From a virus (lineage: Duplodnaviria; Heunggongvirae; Uroviricota; Caudoviricetes), in the IMG/VR virus record IMGVR_UViG_3300042295_001370, positions 5,673-69,672 of that record: DNA of 64,000 nucleotides; one strand, written 5' to 3'. Position 1 is the first letter of the stretch. Every line of letters starts with the position of its first letter. Shown piece by piece: positions 3,935 through 20,080 of this stretch. The position numbers were made by a program, and so were the translations under genes. The notes under the pieces are model-generated. The model was not told where the DNA came from, ran no database searches, and saw nothing but the letters and a program-made list of their open reading frames with translations.

Positions 3935-5911
3935 TTAAGATCCTTTGCGTGAAAGAGCAAGTATAAAGGGAGTCATAAATCCAAAGATGCTTTGATAAAA
4001 GCTGCGTCCATCAATAGCACCTCGTCTCTGATTTATGCGGAAACTGGGTCTGGCAGGAGGTTTCTCCCACACGAAGTTAAAAGTAGCTGACGATCCACCA
4101 CCACTTGTTGACGTTGCACTAATGGGATTTGTGGGCAAACTGCCAATTGTTGTGCTACCTGGCGCCGAAAGTAGATAGTATCCAGGAATAAGAATCGCAA
4201 CACTTGTAATAACACCACTGGACACACTCAAAACCTTAAGTGTTGTGGGCACAGCATAGGTGCTGTTAACGTTGGCTGGGGTAATGAAATTCAATGTATC
4301 CCCTACGTTATAGCTGCCTCCGCCATTGGCAATAGTCAATCCGCCAACTTGAAACGCTGGATTGGGTGTCACAGCCCCCACATAAAAGTCTCCGCTTTCG
4401 TCAGTTGTGGTATGGAATACACGTCCACCAGCTAGTGCAATAGTATATTTGTTGGGATCAGCGTAGCCACTGCCATCTTGACTGGGGCTGAGTTTGGCAT
4501 AATCCAAGCCAGCACCAGCATAGCTCATGGTATAGCCGCTGGCTTCAATCAAGGAGCCAAACTTGATCCTGGCTCGCAATTGCCGGCCAGCTATGGGCAA
4601 AGACTTCAAGCTAATAACTGAACAAGGCAAACCACCCGCTGTTACACCTTTTGATATTGTATAGTCAACAGTGGGCAGCAACGGTGTTGCAGTGTCTAAA
4701 AATTGCACTTCCAAGTCACTGAATTGATTTGGCAAAACATAAGTGCCACCCGTTGTGACAAAATCAGAACTGACACCATTGGTGGCCCAAGTTTGATTTA
4801 CAGCCACAGGGCTGTCAGTGGTTTCAAGATACCGGTGTCCTTGACTCCAAAGAGCATAATTGCCAAAACTGCAATTGCTGTTCAATGCAGTCACGTGACC
4901 ACCATCAAGGCACAGCAAGCCAAACTGGCAGAAGTTAACGAAAAAACTCACCAACTGCATGTAGCCTTTGCCAATGACTTTGACGCCGATACCACCAAGA
5001 TTGATTTGAGTAAATGCGTCAATAACAATGCTGTGAATCCTATTATTGGGTCCCAAAACACTGGGATCAATCAACACACCGCCACCACCTGGGTAAATCC
5101 CTGATCCAGTGTCTGGATCGCCACTAATGCTGGAACAGTTTTGTACATAGGGACTGACCAAGATGTCTGCACCTGGAGCAAAGCCAAAGGCAAATCCTGT
5201 TTGTCGAGTTGTAGAGATCAGTGCAGATGTATTCACTCCACTTGTGTTGGCATAACCTGCTGGAGTTATATCCAATGCTGATGGATTCAATCTATGATCT
5301 CTTACAGTAATGCCATACACATAACACTTGCTGTTCAAATAAAATACATCAGTAGTTGCGACTCTTGGTCGTATGGAAACAGCTCTAAGATTATCGCCAA
5401 TAATGCTGACACCTGGCGGAATTTCAATAGGACAGTCTTCAGTATAGTCACCAGCTGCTACTAATATAGCTGTGTGATCAGGTCGGAATGCACCTGTGGC
5501 AATTTGTCTAGCTGCTTCAGCACATGCAGCTTTCACAGTTCGCTTGGCGCTATACCAACTTTGTCCACTGTTGGTATCATTACCACTTTCTGCAACGTAA
5601 ATGCGATTTTTAACAATTGCATCAGCAATCTGTTGCAGGCTTTCTGCATTTAGCAGTTTCCAAACACTGCCTTCCCAAACATACATTTGTTTGTCTGTGG
5701 TTTTGTACCAAAGCTGTCCTTGTGTGGGACTTTGTGGAGGACTTTGGTCGGCAAAATTTTCCATGAGATGAACAAGATTTTCATTCAAATAAGTACCGTA
5801 ATTGGCAAAATTCTTACCAAATAGGATCAAACTGGAAACTGTGCTGTTATACTGTCCTGGCGGAATACTTGCCAGCGTAGTGCCATTGGTCTTTGTGATA
5901 TTTGTATTCAT
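3935..5911 (-). CDS. Tail fibre / tailspike with predicted beta-helix
   Basis: N-terminal virion-attachment-type segment (GKNFANYG..NENLVHLMENFA..GQLWY) then YVAESGND.NSG motif and pectin-lyase-like repeats. Confidence 0.7.
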   Translation of the reverse strand: MNTNITKTNGTTLASIPPGQYNSTVSSLILFGKNFANYGTYLNENLVHLMENFADQSPPQSPTQGQLWYKTTDKQMYVWEGSVWKLLNAESLQQIADAIVKNRIYVAESGNDTNSGQSWYSAKRTVKAACAEAARQIATGAFRPDHTAILVAAGDYTEDCPIEIPPGVSIIGDNLRAVSIRPRVATTDVFYLNSKCYVYGITVRDHRLNPSALDITPAGYANTSGVNTSALISTTRQTGFAFGFAPGADILVSPYVQNCSSISGDPDTGSGIYPGGGGVLIDPSVLGPNNRIHSIVIDAFTQINLGGIGVKVIGKGYMQLVSFFVNFCQFGLLCLDGGHVTALNSNCSFGNYALWSQGHRYLETTDSPVAVNQTWATNGVSSDFVTTGGTYVLPNQFSDLEVQFLDTATPLLPTVDYTISKGVTAGGLPCSVISLKSLPIAGRQLRARIKFGSLIEASGYTMSYAGAGLDYAKLSPSQDGSGYADPNKYTIALAGGRVFHTTTDESGDFYVGAVTPNPAFQVGGLTIANGGGSYNVGDTLNFITPANVNSTYAVPTTLKVLSVSSGVITSVAILIPGYYLLSAPGSTTIGSLPTNPISATSTSGGGSSATFNFVWEKPPARPSFRINQRRGAIDGRSFYQSIFGFMTPFILALSRKGS

Positions 5912-5919
5912 CTTGATAT

Positions 5920-7677
5920 TTACTGTGTTTCAGTTGGAGGTGTTTCAGCACCTGGAGCAACTTCAGGTGTTTCAAATCCCGGTGTCTCAAGCGGGGCTTC
6001 AGGAGGCATCTCAGGTCCACCCATACCAAAATCAGGCTCTGGTGAAGGGCGTATCCCTATTGATCCCAGTCCCACACCCCTGTCTTCAATGGGGCTGGTG
6101 CCAGTCTTGCCTTTGACTTTGTCGTTGTTTTCTTCTTTCCACATCCGCTCATTTTCCAGAATATCTTCTTCTGTCCATCCTAGATAACGCTTGAGCGCAT
6201 ATCTCTTGCTCATGTAAGCTCTTGCATCACTGTTCATAGCTGAACTGAAGAGGTTAACACGCTCAGTGTCAATGCTCATGTTGCGATATTGACTGAAACT
6301 TTGTGGAACGTTAAATGCCAACTCAAACAAACTGCTGTGTACCTCAATGCCACGGAACTTCAAAAACAATTTAAATTCCATATCCAATGTTGGCGCAAGA
6401 CTGTTCTGCAATCTTTGGCAATATTTGTTGAATCTATACTCTTGGATAAATGCTGTTCCCACTTTGCCATCGTTGTAAACTGCTGTGCCATCATCTGGTC
6501 CAGTGGGCAAATAGCTGCTGGGAATACCCAGCCCGCGCATCAACTTGTTGTTGAAGTATTTCAAGTCGTCAATAGTGCCCAAGTTTTCGCCAGCGTTCAA
6601 AGTGTCAATAGTTGTGCCGCGTTGTTCACTGTTGGTTGCAAGGAAGAAATCTTCTGTAATGCTTATGGGATTATAGGCGCTGTCAATAATACTTGAGCCA
6701 CCACCTGTGCGGTTTGGGAGTCGCCTTTGGTAAATTTCGTTTTTGACTCTTTCAACATACTGCATGGCACGTTGACCTTGCAGCTGACCCACGTCAATCT
6801 TAAACACTCTGCGCTCAGGTGCACGCACAATACGGTAAATGAGAATGCAGTCTTCCAAAAGGTCTTTTTGTTTGTAAGTTTTGTAAACTGCTTCAATGAT
6901 GCTGGTGCCAAAAGGCCAATATTGATCCAAGCCTTCACTTAAACTGAGATGCACCACGTGGTTGGCATCAATTGCCATGCTGTTGGCTGGATTGTAAAAT
7001 CTGCTGGTACGGCCGCCAGGTGTTGTGGGCTGTCCATAGTTGATGTTGCCTGCACCAGCTGCTGGGTTCGCACTACGAGGGTAACCTCCTGGGAAACTGT
7101 ATTGATCATGCACAAGAGGGTTGGTTGCCACTAGACTTTGTAAATTGAAATCCAAATCTCTAATCACATATTGTTCAATTTTTTTGCCTTGTGCCTCATT
7201 GACAATGATTTTTTCCACTTTGGCTGAATCTACCCACAACAGCTCATAGGTTTCTGGATCTCGGACGAAAAATTGATCACCGTATTTGACAGTATTACGG
7301 AATATTTTGAAGATTCGTTGATTCAGTTTATTGATGCTGCACCATTGTTGAAGTGCACTGGCCAAAAGTTCTGTTTCAGTTTCAGTAACATCACCTTTCC
7401 AAATAAATCGGAAAGGAATAGGCTCATCATCACTTTGGTTTTGTGTGCAGAACTCAGCAATAGTGTCCAAGCTGCGATTGATTTCACTATCTAAATCAGC
7501 TTGTTCATAAGCCACATAGCGTTCAACTCGGTTTGGAGCACCAGCATAGACTTCAGGCAAATAACTGCTGAATTTTGTAGTGGTTGCACCTTGACTGTTG
7601 TCTTTGTTGATTTCTGCTAGTCTTGCAGTGAGTCTAGCTTGACTCGGTACTGTTGTGAAATATTTTTTCCAAGCCAT
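5920..7677 (-). CDS. gp20: Portal vertex protein, T4 gp20-like
   Basis: Motifs IYRIVRAPERRVFKIDVG, EDFF, IDTL..GENLG.IDDLKYF..KL.RGL.IP.S. Confidence 0.95.
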   Translation of the reverse strand: MAWKKYFTTVPSQARLTARLAEINKDNSQGATTTKFSSYLPEVYAGAPNRVERYVAYEQADLDSEINRSLDTIAEFCTQNQSDDEPIPFRFIWKGDVTETETELLASALQQWCSINKLNQRIFKIFRNTVKYGDQFFVRDPETYELLWVDSAKVEKIIVNEAQGKKIEQYVIRDLDFNLQSLVATNPLVHDQYSFPGGYPRSANPAAGAGNINYGQPTTPGGRTSRFYNPANSMAIDANHVVHLSLSEGLDQYWPFGTSIIEAVYKTYKQKDLLEDCILIYRIVRAPERRVFKIDVGQLQGQRAMQYVERVKNEIYQRRLPNRTGGGSSIIDSAYNPISITEDFFLATNSEQRGTTIDTLNAGENLGTIDDLKYFNNKLMRGLGIPSSYLPTGPDDGTAVYNDGKVGTAFIQEYRFNKYCQRLQNSLAPTLDMEFKLFLKFRGIEVHSSLFELAFNVPQSFSQYRNMSIDTERVNLFSSAMNSDARAYMSKRYALKRYLGWTEEDILENERMWKEENNDKVKGKTGTSPIEDRGVGLGSIGIRPSPEPDFGMGGPEMPPEAPLETPGFETPEVAPGAETPPTETQ

Positions 7678-11726: not shown

Positions 11727-12536
11727 TTATGCGTAGTTGCTGATTCTATAATTGCCTGGACTACGTGCTGTGCTGTCTAGATATTTCAAAAGATAATTGT
11801 TTTTTGTATTTTTGAAGTCAATTACCCAAGGTGTGTTGTATTCACAGAATCTACCACTCTCTTGCTTGACTATTGCTGTTGTCCATCGATTGTATTCGTT
11901 AAGGTTAAAATGCGGAATAATAATGGGTTTTGTAGTTAACGGAGTCCAAATTTCTGTATGTTGTTCAGTGTTGTTGTATTTGTATTTGATTTCATTACGA
12001 GGGATCTGTGCATGACGTTTGTTGCTGATTTCCAACTCACTCAAGCTGCTGGGTGGTGTCTTGTAAGCCACCTCAATTATATCGCTTGATTGGGGATGAG
12101 CCAAAATGTCTGCTTGCTCTTTGTAAAAATCAATAACTGCTCTAGCCATCTGTTTTTTGGCTTCTGGAATCATAATCCAGCGATTGGCTCCGGCAGATTC
12201 AAACATCATAATTTGCGCTTCGGTCAAAATTGTTTTTTGTGTGAGTCTGTCAAAAGCAACTGGAAAATAACTTTTCAGTTGTTCAGGCCATTCTTGAGGC
12301 TTTTTCACCAATTCGCGAATGTTGAGATTGTATTTGGCTAGATCACAAAAGAGTGATGCTTGATCGTGTGTGATGTTGAGAATAGTTTGTGGAAATGCTC
12401 TTACACGACTTCCAAAGGTTCCTACAAGGGTATTGTAAAATCCCAACTCTTGTCGGAAAAAACTATTGAGCCGATTTTGATCTACTGGATCAACTACAAT
12501 AAAAATGCTGCGGTGTTGTGGCTTGTTGTGCTTCAT
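11727..12536 (-). CDS. Hypothetical protein, possible TnpB N-terminal-like fold lacking RuvC
   Basis: Likely start MKHNKPQHR at 12536 below a TTGATT-17-TATAAT promoter (12561-12589); TnpB resemblance is pattern-level only. Confidence 0.6.
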   Translation of the reverse strand: MKHNKPQHRSIFIVVDPVDQNRLNSFFRQELGFYNTLVGTFGSRVRAFPQTILNITHDQASLFCDLAKYNLNIRELVKKPQEWPEQLKSYFPVAFDRLTQKTILTEAQIMMFESAGANRWIMIPEAKKQMARAVIDFYKEQADILAHPQSSDIIEVAYKTPPSSLSELEISNKRHAQIPRNEIKYKYNNTEQHTEIWTPLTTKPIIIPHFNLNEYNRWTTAIVKQESGRFCEYNTPWVIDFKNTKNNYLLKYLDSTARSPGNYRISNYA

Positions 12537-12628
12537 TTGAAATGCTCTTTTGTTATTTTGATTATAGCCATCTAAAACTATAAAATCAAAGACTTCCAGA
12601 GCTTTTTCTGGATTACAGGAAAAAACAT

Positions 12629-12715
12629 ATGGCAGGGTCCAAAGGCAAGGCAAAAGGAAATGCAGGCGAATTACGGATAGCCAAGTTTCTCACAACGTTA
12701 TATGAAGCCAAATTT
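12629..12715 (+). pseudogene. 5' fragment of a disrupted Holliday junction resolvase
   Basis: AGGA RBS then MAGSKGKAKGNAGELRIAKFLTTLYEAKF, the K.KG...E..IA..L start of this resolvase family. Confidence 0.8.
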
Positions 12716-13205
12716 AATCAAAAAAATAGGTGTCAGGCTGTTGCATCAAATTATCAAGCTTGTATAGGTTAAACCCTTTGTAGTGCAGAATAAGATTACC
12801 TTGCGGGAGCAAGTCTGCCAAAAGGACTAAATCAGGAACATTGTTATATTTGATTATTAGCAATACCTTTTTTCCAGCACTTTGCGCGTCTTGCACAGCT
12901 TGATCAATCCATTCATCCCATGCAGTAATTTTTTGGTTCACTAACGCAGTAAATGTGGGAGGTGTTTTATTGTGTTTGCACTCTATGCTAAATTTGAAGT
13001 GTTTTGGACATATTATATCGCCAAACACTGCATAATCTAAATTATGCGTCTGAAGTTTAGCTATATTTGATCCTCCAAAGTAACTACCGCTATCGGGATT
13101 ACGTCTAAATCCTTTGTCCTCGTTCAATAATGATTTGAACTTTCCAGATAGGAGATTGGAAATCTTCCTCTCATAAGTGTTACCTTTATTTTTACTGTTC
13201 ATCAC
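12714..13205 (-). CDS. Holliday junction resolvase, PD-(D/E)xK (intact copy)
   Basis: SKNKGNTYERKIS..RRNPDSGSYFGG..GDIICP..SIECK. Confidence 0.8.
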   Translation of the reverse strand: MMNSKNKGNTYERKISNLLSGKFKSLLNEDKGFRRNPDSGSYFGGSNIAKLQTHNLDYAVFGDIICPKHFKFSIECKHNKTPPTFTALVNQKITAWDEWIDQAVQDAQSAGKKVLLIIKYNNVPDLVLLADLLPQGNLILHYKGFNLYKLDNLMQQPDTYFFD

Positions 13206-14028
13206 AAACTTCCGTAAACACCATCATATAATAATCCCATTTGTTCTTAATTTGCCAAACTAATGAGTAATCAACATCTAATTGTTTGGCTATTTGTTTA
13301 ACATCATATCCAGCAGTTAAGCTTTCCAATATGCTCTTATATATGTGAGGATTGGCGCGTATTTTAATTTTTTGTAATTCAATGCCCCTTCTGACATTTG
13401 AGAGTCTAGTAGCCTGTTTGTGTTGTTCAGTTTGATTTTTATTTCTCTCTGATATGCGAACGGACGCTTGAATTCTTCGTTGTTCAGAGAATGAATCTTT
13501 AAATTTTTGAATAGTTTCAGGGCTGCGTTTATATCCTTTTTCTCTCGGACATTTCTCTGACAAAATTTTACGTGTCTCTTCAGTGTGAGTCTTACCGTAA
13601 AACCCATTAAGTGGTCCTTTGCGACCTTTTGATGGATTCGGACCGCGCATCTTTTGTTTAGTTTCTTCAGATCTTGGTGACATTACTTGAAGCTTCCGCT
13701 TAGCCTTAATTTTGAGCCTAGTTGAGAGCGGCATAGGAATCTCAAATCTCTTACGCTTCAACCATCCGTATAATTTATTATTCCGTTGGTTTCCGACAGT
13801 CATCATAAATGCAGCATAAACGAGTTTTGCATTATCTGGATGCATCTTCATCAATAATAAATGAGCCACAAAGTGTTCTTCAGGTGTTAATACTGCTAAA
13901 TTTTCAGGGTTATCATCACCGCCTATACATCTAGGAACAATATGATGAATTTCTGTGTACACTGCGATAGGTCCAAACCTAGACTGTGCTGTTTCAATCA
14001 AGCTCTTATAAATCTTTGAATAATTCAT
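13192..14028 (-). CDS. HNH homing endonuclease with NUMOD3-type repeats
   Basis: EIHHIVPRCIGG.D...NL..LT.EEHF.AH; later FYGKTHTEETR motif. Confidence 0.9.
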   Translation of the reverse strand: MNYSKIYKSLIETAQSRFGPIAVYTEIHHIVPRCIGGDDNPENLAVLTPEEHFVAHLLLMKMHPDNAKLVYAAFMMTVGNQRNNKLYGWLKRKRFEIPMPLSTRLKIKAKRKLQVMSPRSEETKQKMRGPNPSKGRKGPLNGFYGKTHTEETRKILSEKCPREKGYKRSPETIQKFKDSFSEQRRIQASVRISERNKNQTEQHKQATRLSNVRRGIELQKIKIRANPHIYKSILESLTAGYDVKQIAKQLDVDYSLVWQIKNKWDYYMMVFTEVCDEQ

Positions 14029-14034
14029 TCTTAA

Positions 14035-14063
14035 CTCCTAAACATTATTTAGGTGTATTTATA
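14035..14063 (-). promoter_or_regulatory. Late promoter TATAAATA plus RBS-sequestering hairpin of the HNH gene
   Basis: Minus strand TATAAATA-CA-CCTAAA-TAATG-TTTAGG-AG-TTAAGA-ATG; the stem covers AGG of AGGAG. Confidence 0.7.
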
Positions 14064-14082
14064 GGTGGCAATAATAATTTAT

Positions 14083-14496
14083 TCTGGTGCCTTCATTGGA
14101 GGAGCAAACACCAAGAGAAAAGACACTATGGATGCTACGCAAATCAGCTACTTCAAAAGTGATCTCATTCCACCTTCCCATATGAAAAAGCTGGTGATTG
14201 AAAGTAAGTTTTATCAAGACTTTCCGTGGCATCGACTCATGTGCAATGGAGATATCAAACAACTGGATGCTTGGATAGAGCAAACACTTGACACATGTGA
14301 TCCAGAAGATTTGTGGTTTGTTGTCATACGCATCAATCACAAAGGAAGTTATGCTTGTTTTGATCAAAAACATTTGGCTGACTTCACGGTTGAAAACCAC
14401 GCACGTTACAAAACCTTTGTAATAACAGAGTTTGAGCCATTTTTTGAACAAAACAAGCTGAAGATTGCTGAACTGAGTTATACTGCTGGTGTATAA
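14083..14496 (+). pseudogene. 3' fragment of the disrupted Holliday junction resolvase
   Basis: Begins SGAFIGGAN..SDLIPP..LVIESKFY..DAWIEQ; lacks the N-terminal motif found at 12629. Confidence 0.8.
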
Positions 14497-14511
14497 TCCC
14501 AATCGAATCGC

Positions 14512-15336
14512 CTATAGTAGTTGGTTAGGTTGAGTTTTGCAATTAGGACCATGCCATCTGATATAGTTCGCTAAACCAAAGATATTCCCGCAATGTTCAC
14601 AAGTTTGTTTTGTTGCTTCGAATATCTGTGCTCTCTTCTTCAAAATTTCTTCAGAGACTTTTTGGCCAGACCTTACTGCGGACATTCGGACTCCAAAGCC
14701 TGCAGGTTTTTTCTTGCCTCGATTTGCTAAACTTATCTTTTCTTTGGTCTCAGCAGACAGACTTCGTCCCCGAGATTTTTGTGAGCGTGCAGCTCGCATC
14801 TCTTCTGCTTTTGGGCCATAAATTTCTTCATAGGACCTGCCTTTTTTAGCTTCGCTCATTTTAGATCTAGCTTCATCAGAATGCTTTTTGCCATATAACG
14901 GATGATTCTCTCCTGACCTGTCGATAAGAGATAATGCATCTTTTATGTTCTTGATTGTTTCTGCACTTCTTTTTTTGCCACAATTGTTAACACTTGCTTT
15001 CATTCTTGATTCATCAGAGACTATCTTCCCAACTGCCCCATCCCCGCCATCAGTTCGATTGTGTAATATACCTGTGTTATTATCCAGGCGTCCCCACCAG
15101 AGTATCAGCCTTCTTTCGAGCGCAACAGCACCAAGATTAGTTAATCCTTGTTCAAGGACAACAATCCTCCATGCTTCTTTTGGTACAGGTAGAGTTCCGT
15201 GGTTTTCTTTGTAACGTATGCCGGTCCCTTTTCCAATATAATAAGGGGTTCCTGCAGGACCATTGTTGGATGTTGTTTTTCTTAAGTAGGCATACACATA
15301 AAACCCAAAGGGTTTGATATTACGATAAATAGACAT
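14512..15336 (-). CDS. GIY-YIG homing endonuclease (Seg-like) with NUMOD3 repeats
   Basis: FYVYAYLR..PYYIGKG, LHNRTDGGDG, HSDEARSKMSEAKKG; start MSIYRN after AAGGGAG. Confidence 0.9.
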   Translation of the reverse strand: MSIYRNIKPFGFYVYAYLRKTTSNNGPAGTPYYIGKGTGIRYKENHGTLPVPKEAWRIVVLEQGLTNLGAVALERRLILWWGRLDNNTGILHNRTDGGDGAVGKIVSDESRMKASVNNCGKKRSAETIKNIKDALSLIDRSGENHPLYGKKHSDEARSKMSEAKKGRSYEEIYGPKAEEMRAARSQKSRGRSLSAETKEKISLANRGKKKPAGFGVRMSAVRSGQKVSEEILKKRAQIFEATKQTCEHCGNIFGLANYIRWHGPNCKTQPNQLL

Positions 15337-15421
15337 AGCTGTTGCTCCCTTAAAGCGATAGAGCCGGTGGACCTGCCAGGGTCGTGACCGGCATATATCT
15401 ATATTTATGGAGTACAGATAA

Positions 15422-17203
15422 TTACTCACCGCTTTCATAGCTGAAACGAGTGAAACCTAACTCTTTGATAACATACAAAACTCGATCGCAGCGACTTGTT
15501 AGCTCTTCTCTATGTGAGATCAACAAAATGTTCTTGTTCCGATCTCTGCTCATAGCCTTAAGCGTCTCTAGAGATCTTTCAAGTCCTGTGCTGTCAAGTC
15601 CCACATCAAGGATCTCATCAACAGCCATGAAGTTGATGCTGGTGTTCATGTTTTCAAAAATGTCTCGGAATGCCCAGCTGAGTGCCAAACAAACTCTTGT
15701 GCGTTCACCTCGGCTGAGACTGTCAAAGTCAAAGTCTACGCCCATATGCATGATCTCAACTCCCAAGTCGTTGCTGAATTTAACTTGGTGTGGCAACATC
15801 AATCCAGCTAGATATTCACCCAGTCTGTGATTCAAGTAGCTGAGGTTTTGATCAATAATACGCTTTCGGATGAAGCTGTCTTTGTTTGTTAGCAGCTTCA
15901 AGAGAAACTCTTGATGGTCTTTGAGTTGGCTGAGTTCATTTAGTGAATCATAAGTGACTTCTTGCAGTGTGTCATTTAAATTACCCACTTGGGCTTGATA
16001 AGGATTGGTTTCAAGCTTAAGTTTGTCCAGTTCACCACTAAGAAGTGTGAGACTGTTTCGATGCTCATATGCCTCATCAATGCTTTTGTAAAATGTTTGG
16101 TTTAGCGATACAGCACTAGACAGACCCATGAGCTCATCCAGTTCTTGTGTCAAACTCAGGCATTCCTGTTCCAGTGTTTGAATGCTGCTGTCCAGTTTGG
16201 TAATTTTGTGCTCAAGGTCGTCCAGCAGATGTGTTTGTTTCTCGTCATGAATCTTTTGACCACACATTGCGCAGTTGTGGTCTTGAATTTGACTATACTG
16301 AGTTAACCAGTTGTTTTGTTGCGCCTTCAGCTGTGTTCCATGCTGTGTTTTTGTTTGGCTTTGGCTGCGCACATTCTTCAATGCTGTTTGAAGTTCACGA
16401 TACACAAGATTGTCTTTGTGACTTTGAATTTCCTGCTCAACATCAAGATGACTCAAAGCATCTAGTGCATTTTCCAAGTCTTGAATTTTGTTCTGATGTT
16501 GAGTATCCCACTGTTGGGTTTTTTGATTCAAACTTTCAATAGTGCTCAAAATACGTGTATTGCTGTTTTTGATAGTATGTATTTTGAACTCTTCTTGTTC
16601 AATAGTTTGTTTGGTTGTTTGAATAAGCTTTTTGAGGTTTTCTGCCTTCTGAGACAGTAATGTAATTCCCAACAGCTCTTCAATTATTTCTCGCTGTTTT
16701 CCAGCACCCATGCTCAAAAATGGCTCAGTATAGGTGTTCAAAGCCACAATGTGTTTGAACATGGTGTGGCTGATGCCCAATACCTTCTCAATCTCTTTCT
16801 GAGTATCTTTGTTTTCGCCTTGAGCTTCGTCTGCACTTTTGTTTTCATTTACTGATTCATCATTTACAACATAGCGGAAAAAACTAGGGGCACGGCCACG
16901 TTCAATTTTGTAGCTGTTGCCGTGGGCTTCAAACTCAATACTCACCACCATGTTCTTTTTGTTGATGCTGTTGATGAGATTGTTTTTCTTGATGTTAGTA
17001 AGAGCTTGACCATACAGGGCATAACAAATGGCTGAAATCAGCGTCGATTTGCCAACACCATTCCGGTTGCCGTTGCCGCCCAAGTCTAGATTCTCGCCCA
17101 ATACAAGAGTCAAGCCAGGTTGTGTGAGAGTAACTGATTGTGTAACAGCACCCACACTCATGAAGTTTTTGATTGTGACGTTTTTGAGGATGATCAAGTT
17201 CAA
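15422..17203 (-). CDS. gp46: Recombination endonuclease ATPase subunit (gp46/SbcC/Rad50)
   Basis: Walker A NGVGKST, coiled coil with CAMC zinc hook, LSRGE signature, Walker B AVDEILD. Confidence 0.95.
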   Translation of the reverse strand: MNLIILKNVTIKNFMSVGAVTQSVTLTQPGLTLVLGENLDLGGNGNRNGVGKSTLISAICYALYGQALTNIKKNNLINSINKKNMVVSIEFEAHGNSYKIERGRAPSFFRYVVNDESVNENKSADEAQGENKDTQKEIEKVLGISHTMFKHIVALNTYTEPFLSMGAGKQREIIEELLGITLLSQKAENLKKLIQTTKQTIEQEEFKIHTIKNSNTRILSTIESLNQKTQQWDTQHQNKIQDLENALDALSHLDVEQEIQSHKDNLVYRELQTALKNVRSQSQTKTQHGTQLKAQQNNWLTQYSQIQDHNCAMCGQKIHDEKQTHLLDDLEHKITKLDSSIQTLEQECLSLTQELDELMGLSSAVSLNQTFYKSIDEAYEHRNSLTLLSGELDKLKLETNPYQAQVGNLNDTLQEVTYDSLNELSQLKDHQEFLLKLLTNKDSFIRKRIIDQNLSYLNHRLGEYLAGLMLPHQVKFSNDLGVEIMHMGVDFDFDSLSRGERTRVCLALSWAFRDIFENMNTSINFMAVDEILDVGLDSTGLERSLETLKAMSRDRNKNILLISHREELTSRCDRVLYVIKELGFTRFSYESGE

Positions 17204-18231
17204 ATACTCTGATAGATTTCAATCAAGCGTTGTTTGTTCATTGTAGTGCTTTCAATACTATTCAAATGTGACACCACAATTGAGTCAACGCTTTCAAAAT
17301 TGATTTCACTATCATCAAGAACAGTGTCATCTCCATCACTTCTGCCATGAATAAAACTCACATCCAAGGCAGCTAGCTGAGTTTCAAATAACTCTCTAAT
17401 GAAGGCAAGGTCTTCATAAGTTAAGTCAGCATCTACTGTTATCCGTGCGAAAGTTTTGTTGTCTATCAAGCCGGTAGGATCCTGAAGTGCCTCTGTAAGG
17501 TTATACGTGCGATACTTGGGTGCACTAAGCCATTTTTCAAATATGGGATCAGTTCCAGGAGTCCAGATCATCAACCCTCTATCATCGTCTCCCGCATCTG
17601 CAAAGTTGTGAGGAAAGGCATTGCCAATATAACAAATGTTGCCCTTTCGCTGCCTTTTGTGAAAATGCCCACTGAACACCAATTTTTGATTTTGAAAGTG
17701 TTCACTGTTCAAGCCGCCATGATCGGGCATTTCCACCATGGCATTCATCCGGAACTTGGCAATTTCAGCATGACAAAACAAATAAGGCTGTTTGATTTTT
17801 TGAATCAACTTATACTCATCACCCACCAACCAAGGAACAAAACAATAGTCTTTGACTGTGGTGATTTTGTCAATTAGGTGAATATTTGAAAAATCCTGTG
17901 CATAGGGAATACTGTGCAGCTCTAGAGTATCTCGAAAATAGAGATCATGGTTGCCCAAGAGCATTATCACATTGTCAAAATTGTTGTTTAGCAGTTTCAT
18001 GCCATTGTGGCTGTAATTGAGTGTGCTGATGTTCACACTGTTGCGGTTGTGACTCCAGTCGCCCAAAAACAAGAGTGTTTTGATTTTCAGCTCTTGTGCT
18101 CGTTTGACCACAAACTCCAAAAACTCAGTACACCAAGTGTTGTGCTGTTTGGAGTTGTTCCGCATGCCAAAATGCACATCAGTTATGGCAATTACTTTTG
18201 AAAAATCAACATTGTCTAGATTGATAGTCAT
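17200..18231 (-). CDS. gp47: Recombination endonuclease nuclease subunit (gp47/SbcD/Mre11)
   Basis: Metallophosphoesterase motifs TDVHFG, LGDW, GNHD, SGHFH. Confidence 0.95.
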   Translation of the reverse strand: MTINLDNVDFSKVIAITDVHFGMRNNSKQHNTWCTEFLEFVVKRAQELKIKTLLFLGDWSHNRNSVNISTLNYSHNGMKLLNNNFDNVIMLLGNHDLYFRDTLELHSIPYAQDFSNIHLIDKITTVKDYCFVPWLVGDEYKLIQKIKQPYLFCHAEIAKFRMNAMVEMPDHGGLNSEHFQNQKLVFSGHFHKRQRKGNICYIGNAFPHNFADAGDDDRGLMIWTPGTDPIFEKWLSAPKYRTYNLTEALQDPTGLIDNKTFARITVDADLTYEDLAFIRELFETQLAALDVSFIHGRSDGDDTVLDDSEINFESVDSIVVSHLNSIESTTMNKQRLIEIYQSI

Positions 18232-18358
18232 GACTCAAAAGTCTCCTTGAGTCAGAGTATAGCTGATAAAAACTGTTAGTTCAACAGGTGGGCAGGACCT
18301 AGATTTGTGATATTCATTATGATATATAAATAATATGCAATAGGGTTGGAGAAAAATT

Positions 18359-20080
18359 GTGAATTTGGCAGAATTGAAAGAACTTTGGTTGAACAAGGAG
18401 ATTACACCAAATAGGTTGACAAAGTTGTTGCCTATACACAAAGAAGAGCTAGACAAATTATTTCCTTGTGAAGGCCCAATTGCAGCTAAATTTTATGCAT
18501 ACGTTCATAACACTAATGCAGAAAACAGTTGGTGTGAACAGAGTGGTAAGTTCAGGACTTTCAATAATATGGTTCTAGGGTTCAGAAAATTCTGTGGTAA
18601 TCAATCTCAATGCTCCTGTAATCGTGAATATCAGGAAAGCGTTCGACACAGCCGCACTAGAGATGAAATAAATCATATTCACGAAAAACGTAAAAATACC
18701 AACCTTCAAAAGTATGGTTTTGAGTATGCAAGTCAACATGACAAGGTCAAAGCCAAAGCTGAGACCACATGTTTTGAAAAGTATGGCGCAAAAGCTCCAA
18801 CCTTAAATCCTGTTGTTTTAGACAAAGCACAAAAAACGATCCAGGAAAATTGGGGAGTAAACTTTCCTCAGCAACATCCTGATATAAGAACCAAAACTAT
18901 AGAGGTGTTTCAAAACACTTATGGAGCACCTGTTCCTGCTCAAAACCTGGAGGTGTTAGTTAAAACCAAAAAAACCAACCTCTCAAAATATGGTGTTGTG
19001 GCCCCGTTTTTGACAACAGAGCATAGGGAGACCAATAGGAAAACTTTTCGGCAAAAATCTTGGGATTCCTATATTACAAATAGGACTGATTACACTCCGT
19101 TATTCACTCAAGAAGAATTTTTGGACTCACATCGTTATTCTGAACATTCGTTTGTTTGCCAAAAATGCCATAACCAATTCAGTGTTGCCTTGAAAAGAGA
19201 ATCTGATTTGCGTTGTTTTGCTTGTTATCCAAGAAAAGAAAGTTGGGGAGAAACAAAGATCAAACAATGGTTGTGGGATAATAACATATCTTTTGAGCAA
19301 TGGAATAGGCAAGTTATCAAGCCATTGGAGATTGACTTTTATCTTCCAGATTTAAATGTGGGTATTGAGTTTAATGGCATCTTTTATCATTCAGATTGCC
19401 AAATAGGAGACAAAAAATATCATCAAAATAAATGGAAACAAGCTCTTGAAAAAGGTGTAAGGCTTGTTCAAATTTGGGAACATGAGATGGTGCAAAAACC
19501 CAATATTATATTTGACAGATTGTCACACGTAGTGGGTTTGAAAAAAACAATTGTTGGTGCACGTAAATGCAACATTACAGTTGTGGATTTTGGAACAGCT
19601 AAAACATTTATTCAGAACTCACACTTGCAGGGCAACATACCAACCAAACATATTTGGGGTTTGGAACACAACGGGTCGCTTGTTGCACTTGCTAGCTTTG
19701 TCAAAACTAGGTATAGCAAAGGGAGTGATTATGAGCTGGCCCGTTATTGTATTTTGCCTGGGTATCATGTGCCAGGAGGGCTTAGCAAGCTTTTGAATCA
19801 TGCACATCAGGAGTTGGGATTCAAAAGCTTGGTGTCCTACAGTAACTTGAACTGGGGACTGGGAAATGGTTACGAAAAAACAGGCTTTGAGTTAAGTCAT
19901 ATCAGTCCACCCAATTATTGGTATTGGAAAAATATAAATGACGTTCAGAGCCGACTTAAATTTCAAAAACACAAAATACAAGGCTTAGCTGCGGGCAATA
20001 CAGAGCAAGAAATTGCCAAAAATTTGGGCTACAATCGTTTTTATGATGCAGGCAACGCAGTGTGGATCAAAAAATACTAG
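18359..20080 (+). CDS. Hef-like homing endonuclease: KYG repeats, PD-(D/E)xK-type domain, C-terminal GNAT-like domain
   Basis: Repeated KYG..Q motifs, zinc motifs, EIDFYLPDLNVGIEFNG, then ARKC..ELARYC..GGLSKLL..VSYS; TATAAATA at 18325-18332. Confidence 0.75.
   Translation: MNLAELKELWLNKEITPNRLTKLLPIHKEELDKLFPCEGPIAAKFYAYVHNTNAENSWCEQSGKFRTFNNMVLGFRKFCGNQSQCSCNREYQESVRHSRTRDEINHIHEKRKNTNLQKYGFEYASQHDKVKAKAETTCFEKYGAKAPTLNPVVLDKAQKTIQENWGVNFPQQHPDIRTKTIEVFQNTYGAPVPAQNLEVLVKTKKTNLSKYGVVAPFLTTEHRETNRKTFRQKSWDSYITNRTDYTPLFTQEEFLDSHRYSEHSFVCQKCHNQFSVALKRESDLRCFACYPRKESWGETKIKQWLWDNNISFEQWNRQVIKPLEIDFYLPDLNVGIEFNGIFYHSDCQIGDKKYHQNKWKQALEKGVRLVQIWEHEMVQKPNIIFDRLSHVVGLKKTIVGARKCNITVVDFGTAKTFIQNSHLQGNIPTKHIWGLEHNGSLVALASFVKTRYSKGSDYELARYCILPGYHVPGGLSKLLNHAHQELGFKSLVSYSNLNWGLGNGYEKTGFELSHISPPNYWYWKNINDVQSRLKFQKHKIQGLAAGNTEQEIAKNLGYNRFYDAGNAVWIKKY

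Follow-up and report, generated by a model that had tools for sequence, protein, structure and literature searches.

Homing endonuclease genes are thought to persist in self-splicing introns or inteins, or between genes. In fungal mitochondria, the so-called mORFs, known from atp6 of Allomyces macrogynus and from atp6, atp9, cox2 and nad3 of Glomus, bring a foreign C-terminal end that is fused in phase, and the native end is left as an orphan (PMC3630166). The free-standing endonucleases SegF, SegG, SegE and MobE of phage T4 carry out intronless homing between genes and take linked alleles with them (PMC2988022; PMC2790892). Genes may also be left in pieces, as with nrdA and mobE of phage Aeh1, genes 39/60 and mobA of T4 and gene 43 of phage 25, and the pieces then reassemble into an active enzyme (PMC2988022). 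In “HEG islands”, homing endonuclease genes (HEGs) cluster at essential DNA metabolism genes and mobilise their neighbours (PMC10448857), and the synthetic Cas9-based drives HomeR (PMC7968924) and ClvR (PMC7183144) were built for diploid animals with a recoded copy of the same gene for rescue. Here, we analyze a window of 64,000 nucleotides (nt), positions 5,673 to 69,672 of the 133.7-kb IMG/VR virus record IMGVR_UViG_3300042295_001370, in which a putative resolvase gene is split by an opposite-strand cassette containing an HNH endonuclease gene and a complete, divergent resolvase gene. A first-pass annotation of the window, made from the sequence alone, had noticed this arrangement, and each element was found where it had been placed. 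Full-text literature searches revealed no description of a phage endonuclease gene that carries a whole substitute for the gene it splits.

The resident gene, which we refer to as type 1, encodes a putative resolvase of the PDDEXK_15 (Hjc-like) family on the plus strand and is broken into two pieces located at 12629–12716 and 14081–14496. The 5′ piece comprises 29 codons, includes the conserved glutamate of the first helix and matches positions 3–28 of phrog_244; its open reading frame (ORF) continues to position 12772 (47 amino acids, aa), antisense to the end of the inserted resolvase gene. The 3′ piece comprises 137 codons from SGAF onward, keeps the aspartate and the ExK motif, lacks the first-helix glutamate and matches positions 31–134 of Pfam family PF24608 (PDDEXK_15) with a score of 31.5 bits (cut-off 27). 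The pieces belong to one gene, as had been supposed, since both align end to end with single proteins of ca. 170 aa from Salicola phage SCTP-2, Pseudomonas phage PA5oct and Sinorhizobium phage Phosso, with the 5′ piece falling on the N-termini of the full-length homologues. Both pieces can likewise be aligned with the 171-aa gene that is intact in near-identical sibling contigs (L005–L007; L numbers designate contigs below), and the 3′ piece is 96% identical to the intact allele at the amino acid level. The split gene is at its usual syntenic position: the region is syntenic with gp342–gp345 of PA5oct, where the resolvase homologue, gp342, has the same placement relative to the SbcCD homologues. 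The insertion falls in a part of the type 1 coding sequence that is highly conserved, the stretch for F-(I/M)-R-V-P-N-S-G. The two pieces are in different reading frames, the break parts the first-helix glutamate from the aspartate and ExK, and the codon of a nearly invariant arginine is disrupted.

The inserted cassette (12717–14080, minus strand, 1364 nt) consists of a promoter-like leader, the HNH gene and the second resolvase gene. The HNH gene (13192–14028, minus strand) encodes a 278-aa protein with an N-terminal HNH motif, a NUMOD3 motif (30.6 bits, cut-off 20.4) and a C-terminal helix-turn-helix. The protein matches phrog_655, annotated as “homing endonuclease” (E 1e-50), and an HH..N..H pattern visible in it is invariant in three diverged copies. 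At the DNA level, the gene is similar to homing-endonuclease genes of T4-like phages, some of which stand beside nrdA. Comparison of the window with the more distant carrier L012 gave a ratio of non-synonymous to synonymous substitution rates (dN/dS) of ~0.1 for the HNH gene, and the ORFs of both cargo genes are intact in every copy that is fully covered.

The second resolvase gene, res2 (12714–13205, minus strand), is a complete “type 2” PDDEXK_15 gene that codes for 162–163 aa, with 13202 as the position of its probable ATG start; the 3′ end of the HNH gene overlaps its start, forming a translational overlap that is kept even in L013, a genome with a different arrangement of the locus that is described below. 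The product of res2 matches PF24608 with 89.1 bits (cut-off 27), and a scan of the phage's own genome finds the res2 locus above this cut-off. According to the first-pass annotation, the cargo was an allele of the target gene; a complete substitute is indeed carried, but it is a distant paralogue, just 25% identical to the split type 1 gene, of a subtype that is found here without an HNH gene in sister phages. An alignment of 71 sequences from both subtypes shows no variation at residues E12, D63, E75 and K77. An AlphaFold model of the res2 product (pLDDT 86.3) has archaeal Hjc resolvases as its top PDB matches (2wcz, Foldseek E 7.5e-4, TM 0.4–0.5), followed by RecU. Because this structural match is modest, “resolvase” stays a prediction; the position of the PDDEXK_15 gene next to SbcCD homologues is suggestive of such a role, and the PHROG label of the family, “RusA-like”, is an annotation only. 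No characterised member of PF24608 was apparent in the literature, and full-text literature searches returned no paper on the function of D14 of phage T5. PDB sequence searches with the HNH and res2 proteins gave chance-level matches only, and a scan of metagenome contigs with the res2 alignment did not yield a relative.

The upstream end of the cassette (14029–14080, minus strand) has a Shine-Dalgarno sequence, AGGAG (14035–14039), 6 nt before the ATG of the HNH gene and a TATAAATA box (14056–14063) ca. 30 nt upstream of it. The cassette copies of the window, L012, L070 and L076 all have this box; it has one mismatch in L075 and is also found before the HNH gene of L013. It occurs just twice in the 64 kb, which is not a significant enrichment, because two or more matches were present in 14 of 100 shuffled sequences. 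The other occurrence (18325–18332, plus strand) lies 27 nt upstream of the start of a 573-aa gene, at 18359, in the divergent region beside the SbcD-like gene. In a scan for σ70 promoters and terminators, matches were no commoner than in shuffled sequences. The promoter region of the type 1 gene (12537–12628) and its start codon are untouched by the cassette; a transcript from this promoter would be antisense to res2 and the HNH gene, giving a 47-aa peptide (12629–12772), and such an antisense RNA could conceivably regulate the cassette.

Cassette-free relatives with an intact plus-strand gene were found, and they define both junctions. Sibling IMG/VR contigs L005–L007 share 98–100% identity with the window across many kilobases and have the gene intact, as do the IMG/VR contigs L008–L010, which are ca. 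84% identical to the window at the nucleotide level; the cassette is absent in all six. Between the window and the cassette-free sibling, the backbone is 98.4% identical, and, by sliding identity, the window and L005 are 100% identical over 12500–12716 and 99–100% identical over 14081–14280 (99.5% to the right of the cassette). Homology to the intact allele stops at 12716 and restarts at 14081. As can be seen from the intact site, which reads AAATTTA-TTAGGGTGCCTA-ATTCTGG, the 1364-nt insert stands in place of 12 nt (TTAGGGTGCCTA) of the type 1 gene. The loss of these 12 nt disrupts the five codons I-R-V-P-N; the earlier figures of about 1.37 kb for the insert and about five missing codons give way to exact values of 1364 and 12 nt. 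The stop codon of res2 (12714–12716) does sit at the left junction as described, overlapping the final base of left-side homology. Only short, chance-level repeats were found at the termini of the insert. An inverted match between 13066–13078 and 14096–14108 was dismissed as a terminal repeat, being the GG.N motif common to both nuclease genes. We also rejected, as evidence, the idea that the stop codon of res2 (TAA in the window; TGA in L012, L070, L075 and L076) was supplied by a phenylalanine codon of the host gene (TTT or TTC), since there is a single independent contrast and res2-type proteins end at the same motif in cassette-free genomes. In L008–L010, the arginine and serine codons at the empty site are CGT...AGT and not AGG...TCT (L009 5975–6010 compared with L005 5975–6010), leaving the protein unchanged; by its sequence, this allele may be a cleavage-resistant variant of the target.

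The same cassette is present in diverged phages. Both junctions are at the position seen in the window in L012/L014, in the 333-kb contig L070 and in L075. L076 has the left junction only in common with the window, and in L082/L083 a more distant variant of the cassette has its left end within a few nucleotides of the window's left junction. In the window, L012, L070 and L075, the cassette stands in place of the same 12 nt, T(T/G)AGGGTGCC(C/T)A. Every one of these lineages has a cassette-free counterpart in which an intact gene lies in matching surroundings (L005, L079, L077 and L078). Presence or absence at a fixed site, a trait of free-standing HNH homing endonucleases, is therefore seen in four pairs of occupied and empty lineages, of which the window/L005 pair is near-clonal. 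This amounts to a discrete insertion/deletion polymorphism at one conserved site, with both cargo genes conserved and the host gene disrupted without splicing.

We built a tree of 77 type 1 sequences, comprising 73 intact proteins and the four orphan 3′ fragments. The fragments of the four carriers are scattered on it, each grouping with its own closest intact alleles (87–93% identity), while they are just 55–76% identical to each other. The tree needs four changes of state, at least three of which are forced by well-supported branches. The cassette has a different history. Between L075 and L070, identity is 58% for SbcC and 61% for the 3′ fragment, yet 88% for the HNH protein and 86.5% for res2, and in the alignment of the two contigs identity of ~60–65% in the flanks rises to 82–98% inside the cassette, with a sharp step at both borders. 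L012 is sister to L070/L076 by SbcC (100/100), yet falls outside of the group of the window, L070, L075 and L076 by res2 (87/96). In L082/L083, a flanking backbone gene is 78% identical to that of the window, yet the HNH and res2 proteins are just 54% and 61% identical, respectively. The discordant cassette and backbone trees, the identity steps and the scatter of the carriers show that the cassette has moved horizontally with respect to its flanks.

Other states of the locus were found among related genomes. L076, which is ca. 90% identical to the carrier L070 at the nucleotide level, lacks the 3′ fragment and keeps the cassette and the 5′ fragment. In L080, a res2 gene 73–74% identical to the cassette copies stands directly after SbcC, with neither an HNH gene nor fragments; its backbone belongs to the type 1 clade (SbcC 68–69% identical to L012/L070). 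L080 could be a replacement that has run to completion or else a member of the donor lineage. In L071 and in the 493-kb contig L073, a type 2 gene without an HNH gene is located directly downstream of SbcC, in the same orientation. L013, which clusters with L071 and L073 in the SbcC tree, has the order SbcC, 33 nt, HNH gene, res2, with the same overlap of the last two. After the SbcC stop codon of L013, a T-rich stretch is followed by TATAAATAG, which resembles the upstream end of the cassette. From this layout and resemblance, the cassette would correspond to the interval from just past the SbcC stop codon to the res2 stop codon of an L013-like genome. It probably arose from an L013-like phage, in which the HNH gene would have been an ordinary free-standing gene between SbcC and the type 2 gene.

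Taken together, we regard it as probable that the insert is a homing cassette equipped with its own rescue gene and that it leads to non-orthologous displacement of the resolvase gene. The homing element without splicing that the first-pass annotation had postulated is borne out to this extent by the shared site in diverged lineages, the scattered carriers, the identity steps, the discordant trees and the lack of an intron signal. Such a cassette would work as follows. During co-infection, the HNH enzyme would cut the intact type 1 gene of a cassette-free phage at or near the F-(I/M)-R-V-P-N-S-G stretch, and the recombination system of the phage would repair the break by copying from the cassette-bearing genome, with the type 1 halves serving as homology arms. 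Once the cassette is copied in, the 12 nt that it replaces would be gone together with part of the presumed target, making the carriers immune, and res2 would escape cutting through the different spelling of its matching stretch; the lost 12 nt and the different res2 sequence at the matching place are compatible with such immunity. The type 1 gene would be destroyed, there being no splicing and its catalytic glutamate and D/ExK residues being on separate, out-of-frame fragments, and the co-transferred res2, coupled to the HNH gene, would supply the nuclease function. Later, loss of the orphan fragments and of the HNH gene would leave the locus with a resolvase gene that is non-orthologous and in the opposite orientation. 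With a confidence only a little above even, we go further and see in the locus a natural whole-gene “home-and-rescue” drive: the HNH enzyme would target the stretch that is most conserved in one resolvase subtype, and phage viability would be maintained by the cargo paralogue. Repeated invasion, with later decay of the fragments and of the HNH gene, would then be a general route for the displacement of phage core genes in situ by non-orthologous and even inverted substitutes, and environmental jumbo phages appear to offer samples of every stage.

Several points weigh against the homing cassette. We infer from sequence comparison the cleavage of the intact allele by the HNH enzyme, rescue by res2, immunity of carriers and essentiality of the gene; the record is ~30% complete as estimated by CheckV, which bears on whether the phage needs a resolvase-like nuclease. 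The Pfam HNH match (E 0.0012, 19.3 bits) is under the 21.4-bit cut-off. The type 1 tree is compatible with either gain or loss at each node. No co-conversion tracts were found beside the cassette: the flanks of L075 are lineage-specific from the first bases past both junctions, and those of the window are those of L005. Classical homing between flanks that are ~60–65% identical at the nucleotide level should be inefficient. The absence of tracts may reflect transfer via close relatives, tracts that were very short or later erased or an unusual mechanism of insertion; a bolder version of the homing reading would be that of an exact-ended insertion without co-conversion, by a mechanism unlike classical double-strand-break repair homing. 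The orphan fragments, finally, contain no stop codons and no excess of non-synonymous change, and a relative-rate test, which had few informative sites, gave no significant sign of relaxed constraint in the 3′ orphans. The fragments may be recent, refreshed by recombination or still used.

The last of these possibilities leads to a different explanation, in which the cassette is a genuine mobile element and the type 1 gene is split but alive, the 3′ fragment, possibly together with the 29-aa peptide of the 5′ piece, still being made and used, for instance, as a truncated subunit or regulator, in the manner of nrdA of Aeh1 or T4 genes 39/60. Precedents for split genes do exist (PMC2988022). The window, L012, L070 and L075 all have an open 3′ fragment, three of these four lineages have an in-frame methionine (MDA.Q), and lineage-specific changes are mostly synonymous (one non-synonymous against nine synonymous in L070; non-synonymous and synonymous differences between the window and L012 of pN 0.28 and pS ~0.8). 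The synonymous-rich pattern is, however, equally expected from recent insertions, and the possible internal starts of the 3′ fragment are not preceded by an evident Shine-Dalgarno site. The catalytic glutamate and D/ExK are on different out-of-frame pieces, with the nearly invariant arginine in the disrupted stretch; the 3′ fragment is absent from L076 and both fragments are absent from L080; and a full second nuclease gene is present in every case. We consider a living split gene unlikely. A slightly lower probability still is assigned to the HNH gene being a mere passenger, with res2 having spread by homologous or illegitimate recombination, perhaps because it is advantageous, and the shared junction going back to one old insertion whose flanks were later recombined. 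Such a history would accommodate the lack of co-conversion tracts, the res2-type genes without an HNH gene in L080, L071 and L073 and the freedom of direction on the type 1 tree. It is at odds with junctions that are identical in position on both sides across four type 1 lineages, with lineage-specific flanks up to the border and identity steps at the cassette ends, borders that general recombination alone would hardly produce. The HNH gene is, moreover, linked and intact in every fully covered split-gene carrier and under purifying selection, and the site falls where the coding sequence of type 1 is most conserved, as homing sites usually do.

That the split is an artefact of chimeric assembly, or that a group I intron or intein leaves the type 1 gene whole, is extremely improbable. 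Misassembly, the concern raised by the first-pass annotation itself, is excluded because an identical res2 protein was found on at least 16 independently assembled contigs from different samples and assemblers (JGI, ENA and Logan), with the same layout and shared junctions wherever the contig reaches. Introns and inteins are generally frequent in phage genes, and the portal gene of the related L070 and L076 carries an intein. An Rfam scan of 12300–14800 with E values up to 1, however, gave no match, group I introns included. Together with the genes of the insert being on the opposite strand, the fragments being out of frame and the missing 12 nt, this refutes a group I intron, an intein or another structured RNA as far as sequence analysis allows.

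The window derives from an uncultured T4-like jumbo phage, as judged by its T4-like gene content: SbcC and SbcD homologues of gp46/47 and a T4-type baseplate gene in the window and a T4-type portal gene in relatives. The SbcC/gp46-like recombination nuclease subunit (15422–17203, minus strand), with AAA_23 and SMC_N domains, was the backbone marker used above, and the SbcD-like gene (17200–18231) follows it. The inteins of the T4-type portal genes of L070 (10045–10489) and L076 (10067–10489) were seen in precomputed Pfam matches, in the order Portal_T4, Intein_splicing, Portal_T4. In L071, a gene of the Acb1 family (anti-CBASS phosphodiesterase; 5501–5980) converges on the type 2 resolvase gene, and in L072 (3038–3517) an Acb1-family gene was called as two pieces.

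A second free-standing homing-endonuclease gene (14512–15438, minus strand) is located outside of the cassette, between the 3′ end of the type 1 gene and SbcC, 16 nt past the split gene. Its 308-aa product has three NUMOD3 motifs and matches phrog_314 (“homing endonuclease”); no GIY-YIG profile match was obtained, and a GIY-YIG-like N-terminus was read by eye. The gene is absent in L005–L010, where the type 1 and SbcC genes overlap tail to tail, and present in L011, L060, L061 and L063. Its insertion is bordered by ca. 200 and ca. 100 nt of diverged sequence, and the last ~15 residues of SbcC are altered. The diverged tract (14281–15560, 83–88% identical to L005 at its edges) around the insertion is, judging by this pattern, probably a co-conversion tract of a second, independent insertion. 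One metagenome, JGI sample 3300042907, yielded two contigs that break off within the 3′ fragment, L011 and L062; L062 spans residues 35–96 of the intact type 1 protein, and L011 starts at residue 108, near position 14281, where the divergence between the window and L005 begins. These contig ends suggest that the population is heterogeneous near this position. Beyond the window, a 354-aa frame (G000:C1:127707-128537) is weakly similar to the HNH protein (36% over 138 aa) and to the NUMOD3 region of the second endonuclease; it is probably a third homing-endonuclease gene of the phage.

If the homing cassette is what it appears to be, it would provide a testable mechanism for non-orthologous gene displacement at a fixed phage locus, that of a recombination nuclease beside SbcCD homologues. 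The design of engineered home-and-rescue drives would then already exist in nature, and a compact nuclease with a defined conserved target would be available together with natural occupied, empty and possibly resistant alleles. A third route for homing endonuclease genes would be represented in its most complete form, the gene being broken and a whole replacement carried. For annotation, orphan gene fragments around an endonuclease gene and a paralogue would be read as one element and not as pseudogenes plus unrelated genes.

Among the systems described, the fungal mORFs are the nearest natural precedent, and phage intronless homing is also close. As in the mORFs, an endonuclease gene is found inside a protein-coding gene without an intron, foreign coding sequence takes over, the displaced native part stays nearby as an orphan that is near-identical to the gene of close relatives, and the element spreads horizontally. 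A mORF, however, supplies just the C-terminus of the same gene in phase and forms a same-strand hybrid in an organelle, whereas the cassette carries a whole, separately expressed gene that is on the opposite strand and 25% identical, both halves of the target are orphaned and the host is a phage; no in-phase fusion to the remaining native part is seen here, and no hybrid gene is formed. With intronless homing, the locus shares a free-standing HNH-type gene in a T4-like phage, presence/absence polymorphism and a linked gene version that travels along. The classical cases, in contrast, are intergenic, replace the allele of a neighbour by homologous co-conversion and leave no remnants; the cassette is inside its target gene, no co-conversion tract is seen beside it and the linked gene is a distant paralogue and not a resistant allele.

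The known genes in pieces differ in that their pieces are co-oriented and both translated, and they come without a replacement copy. The cassette, in contrast, leaves pieces that are out of frame, one of them just 29 codons long, and that can be lost (the 3′ piece in L076, both in L080), and it supplies a substitute. The second endonuclease gene so close to the split gene recalls HEG islands, but what has been described for these is the exchange of homologous regions bracketed by endonuclease genes, with no insertion that brings a paralogue as cargo. With HomeR and ClvR, the locus has in common, by analogy only, a nuclease that breaks a needed gene and a linked, cleavage-immune rescue copy placed at the target locus.

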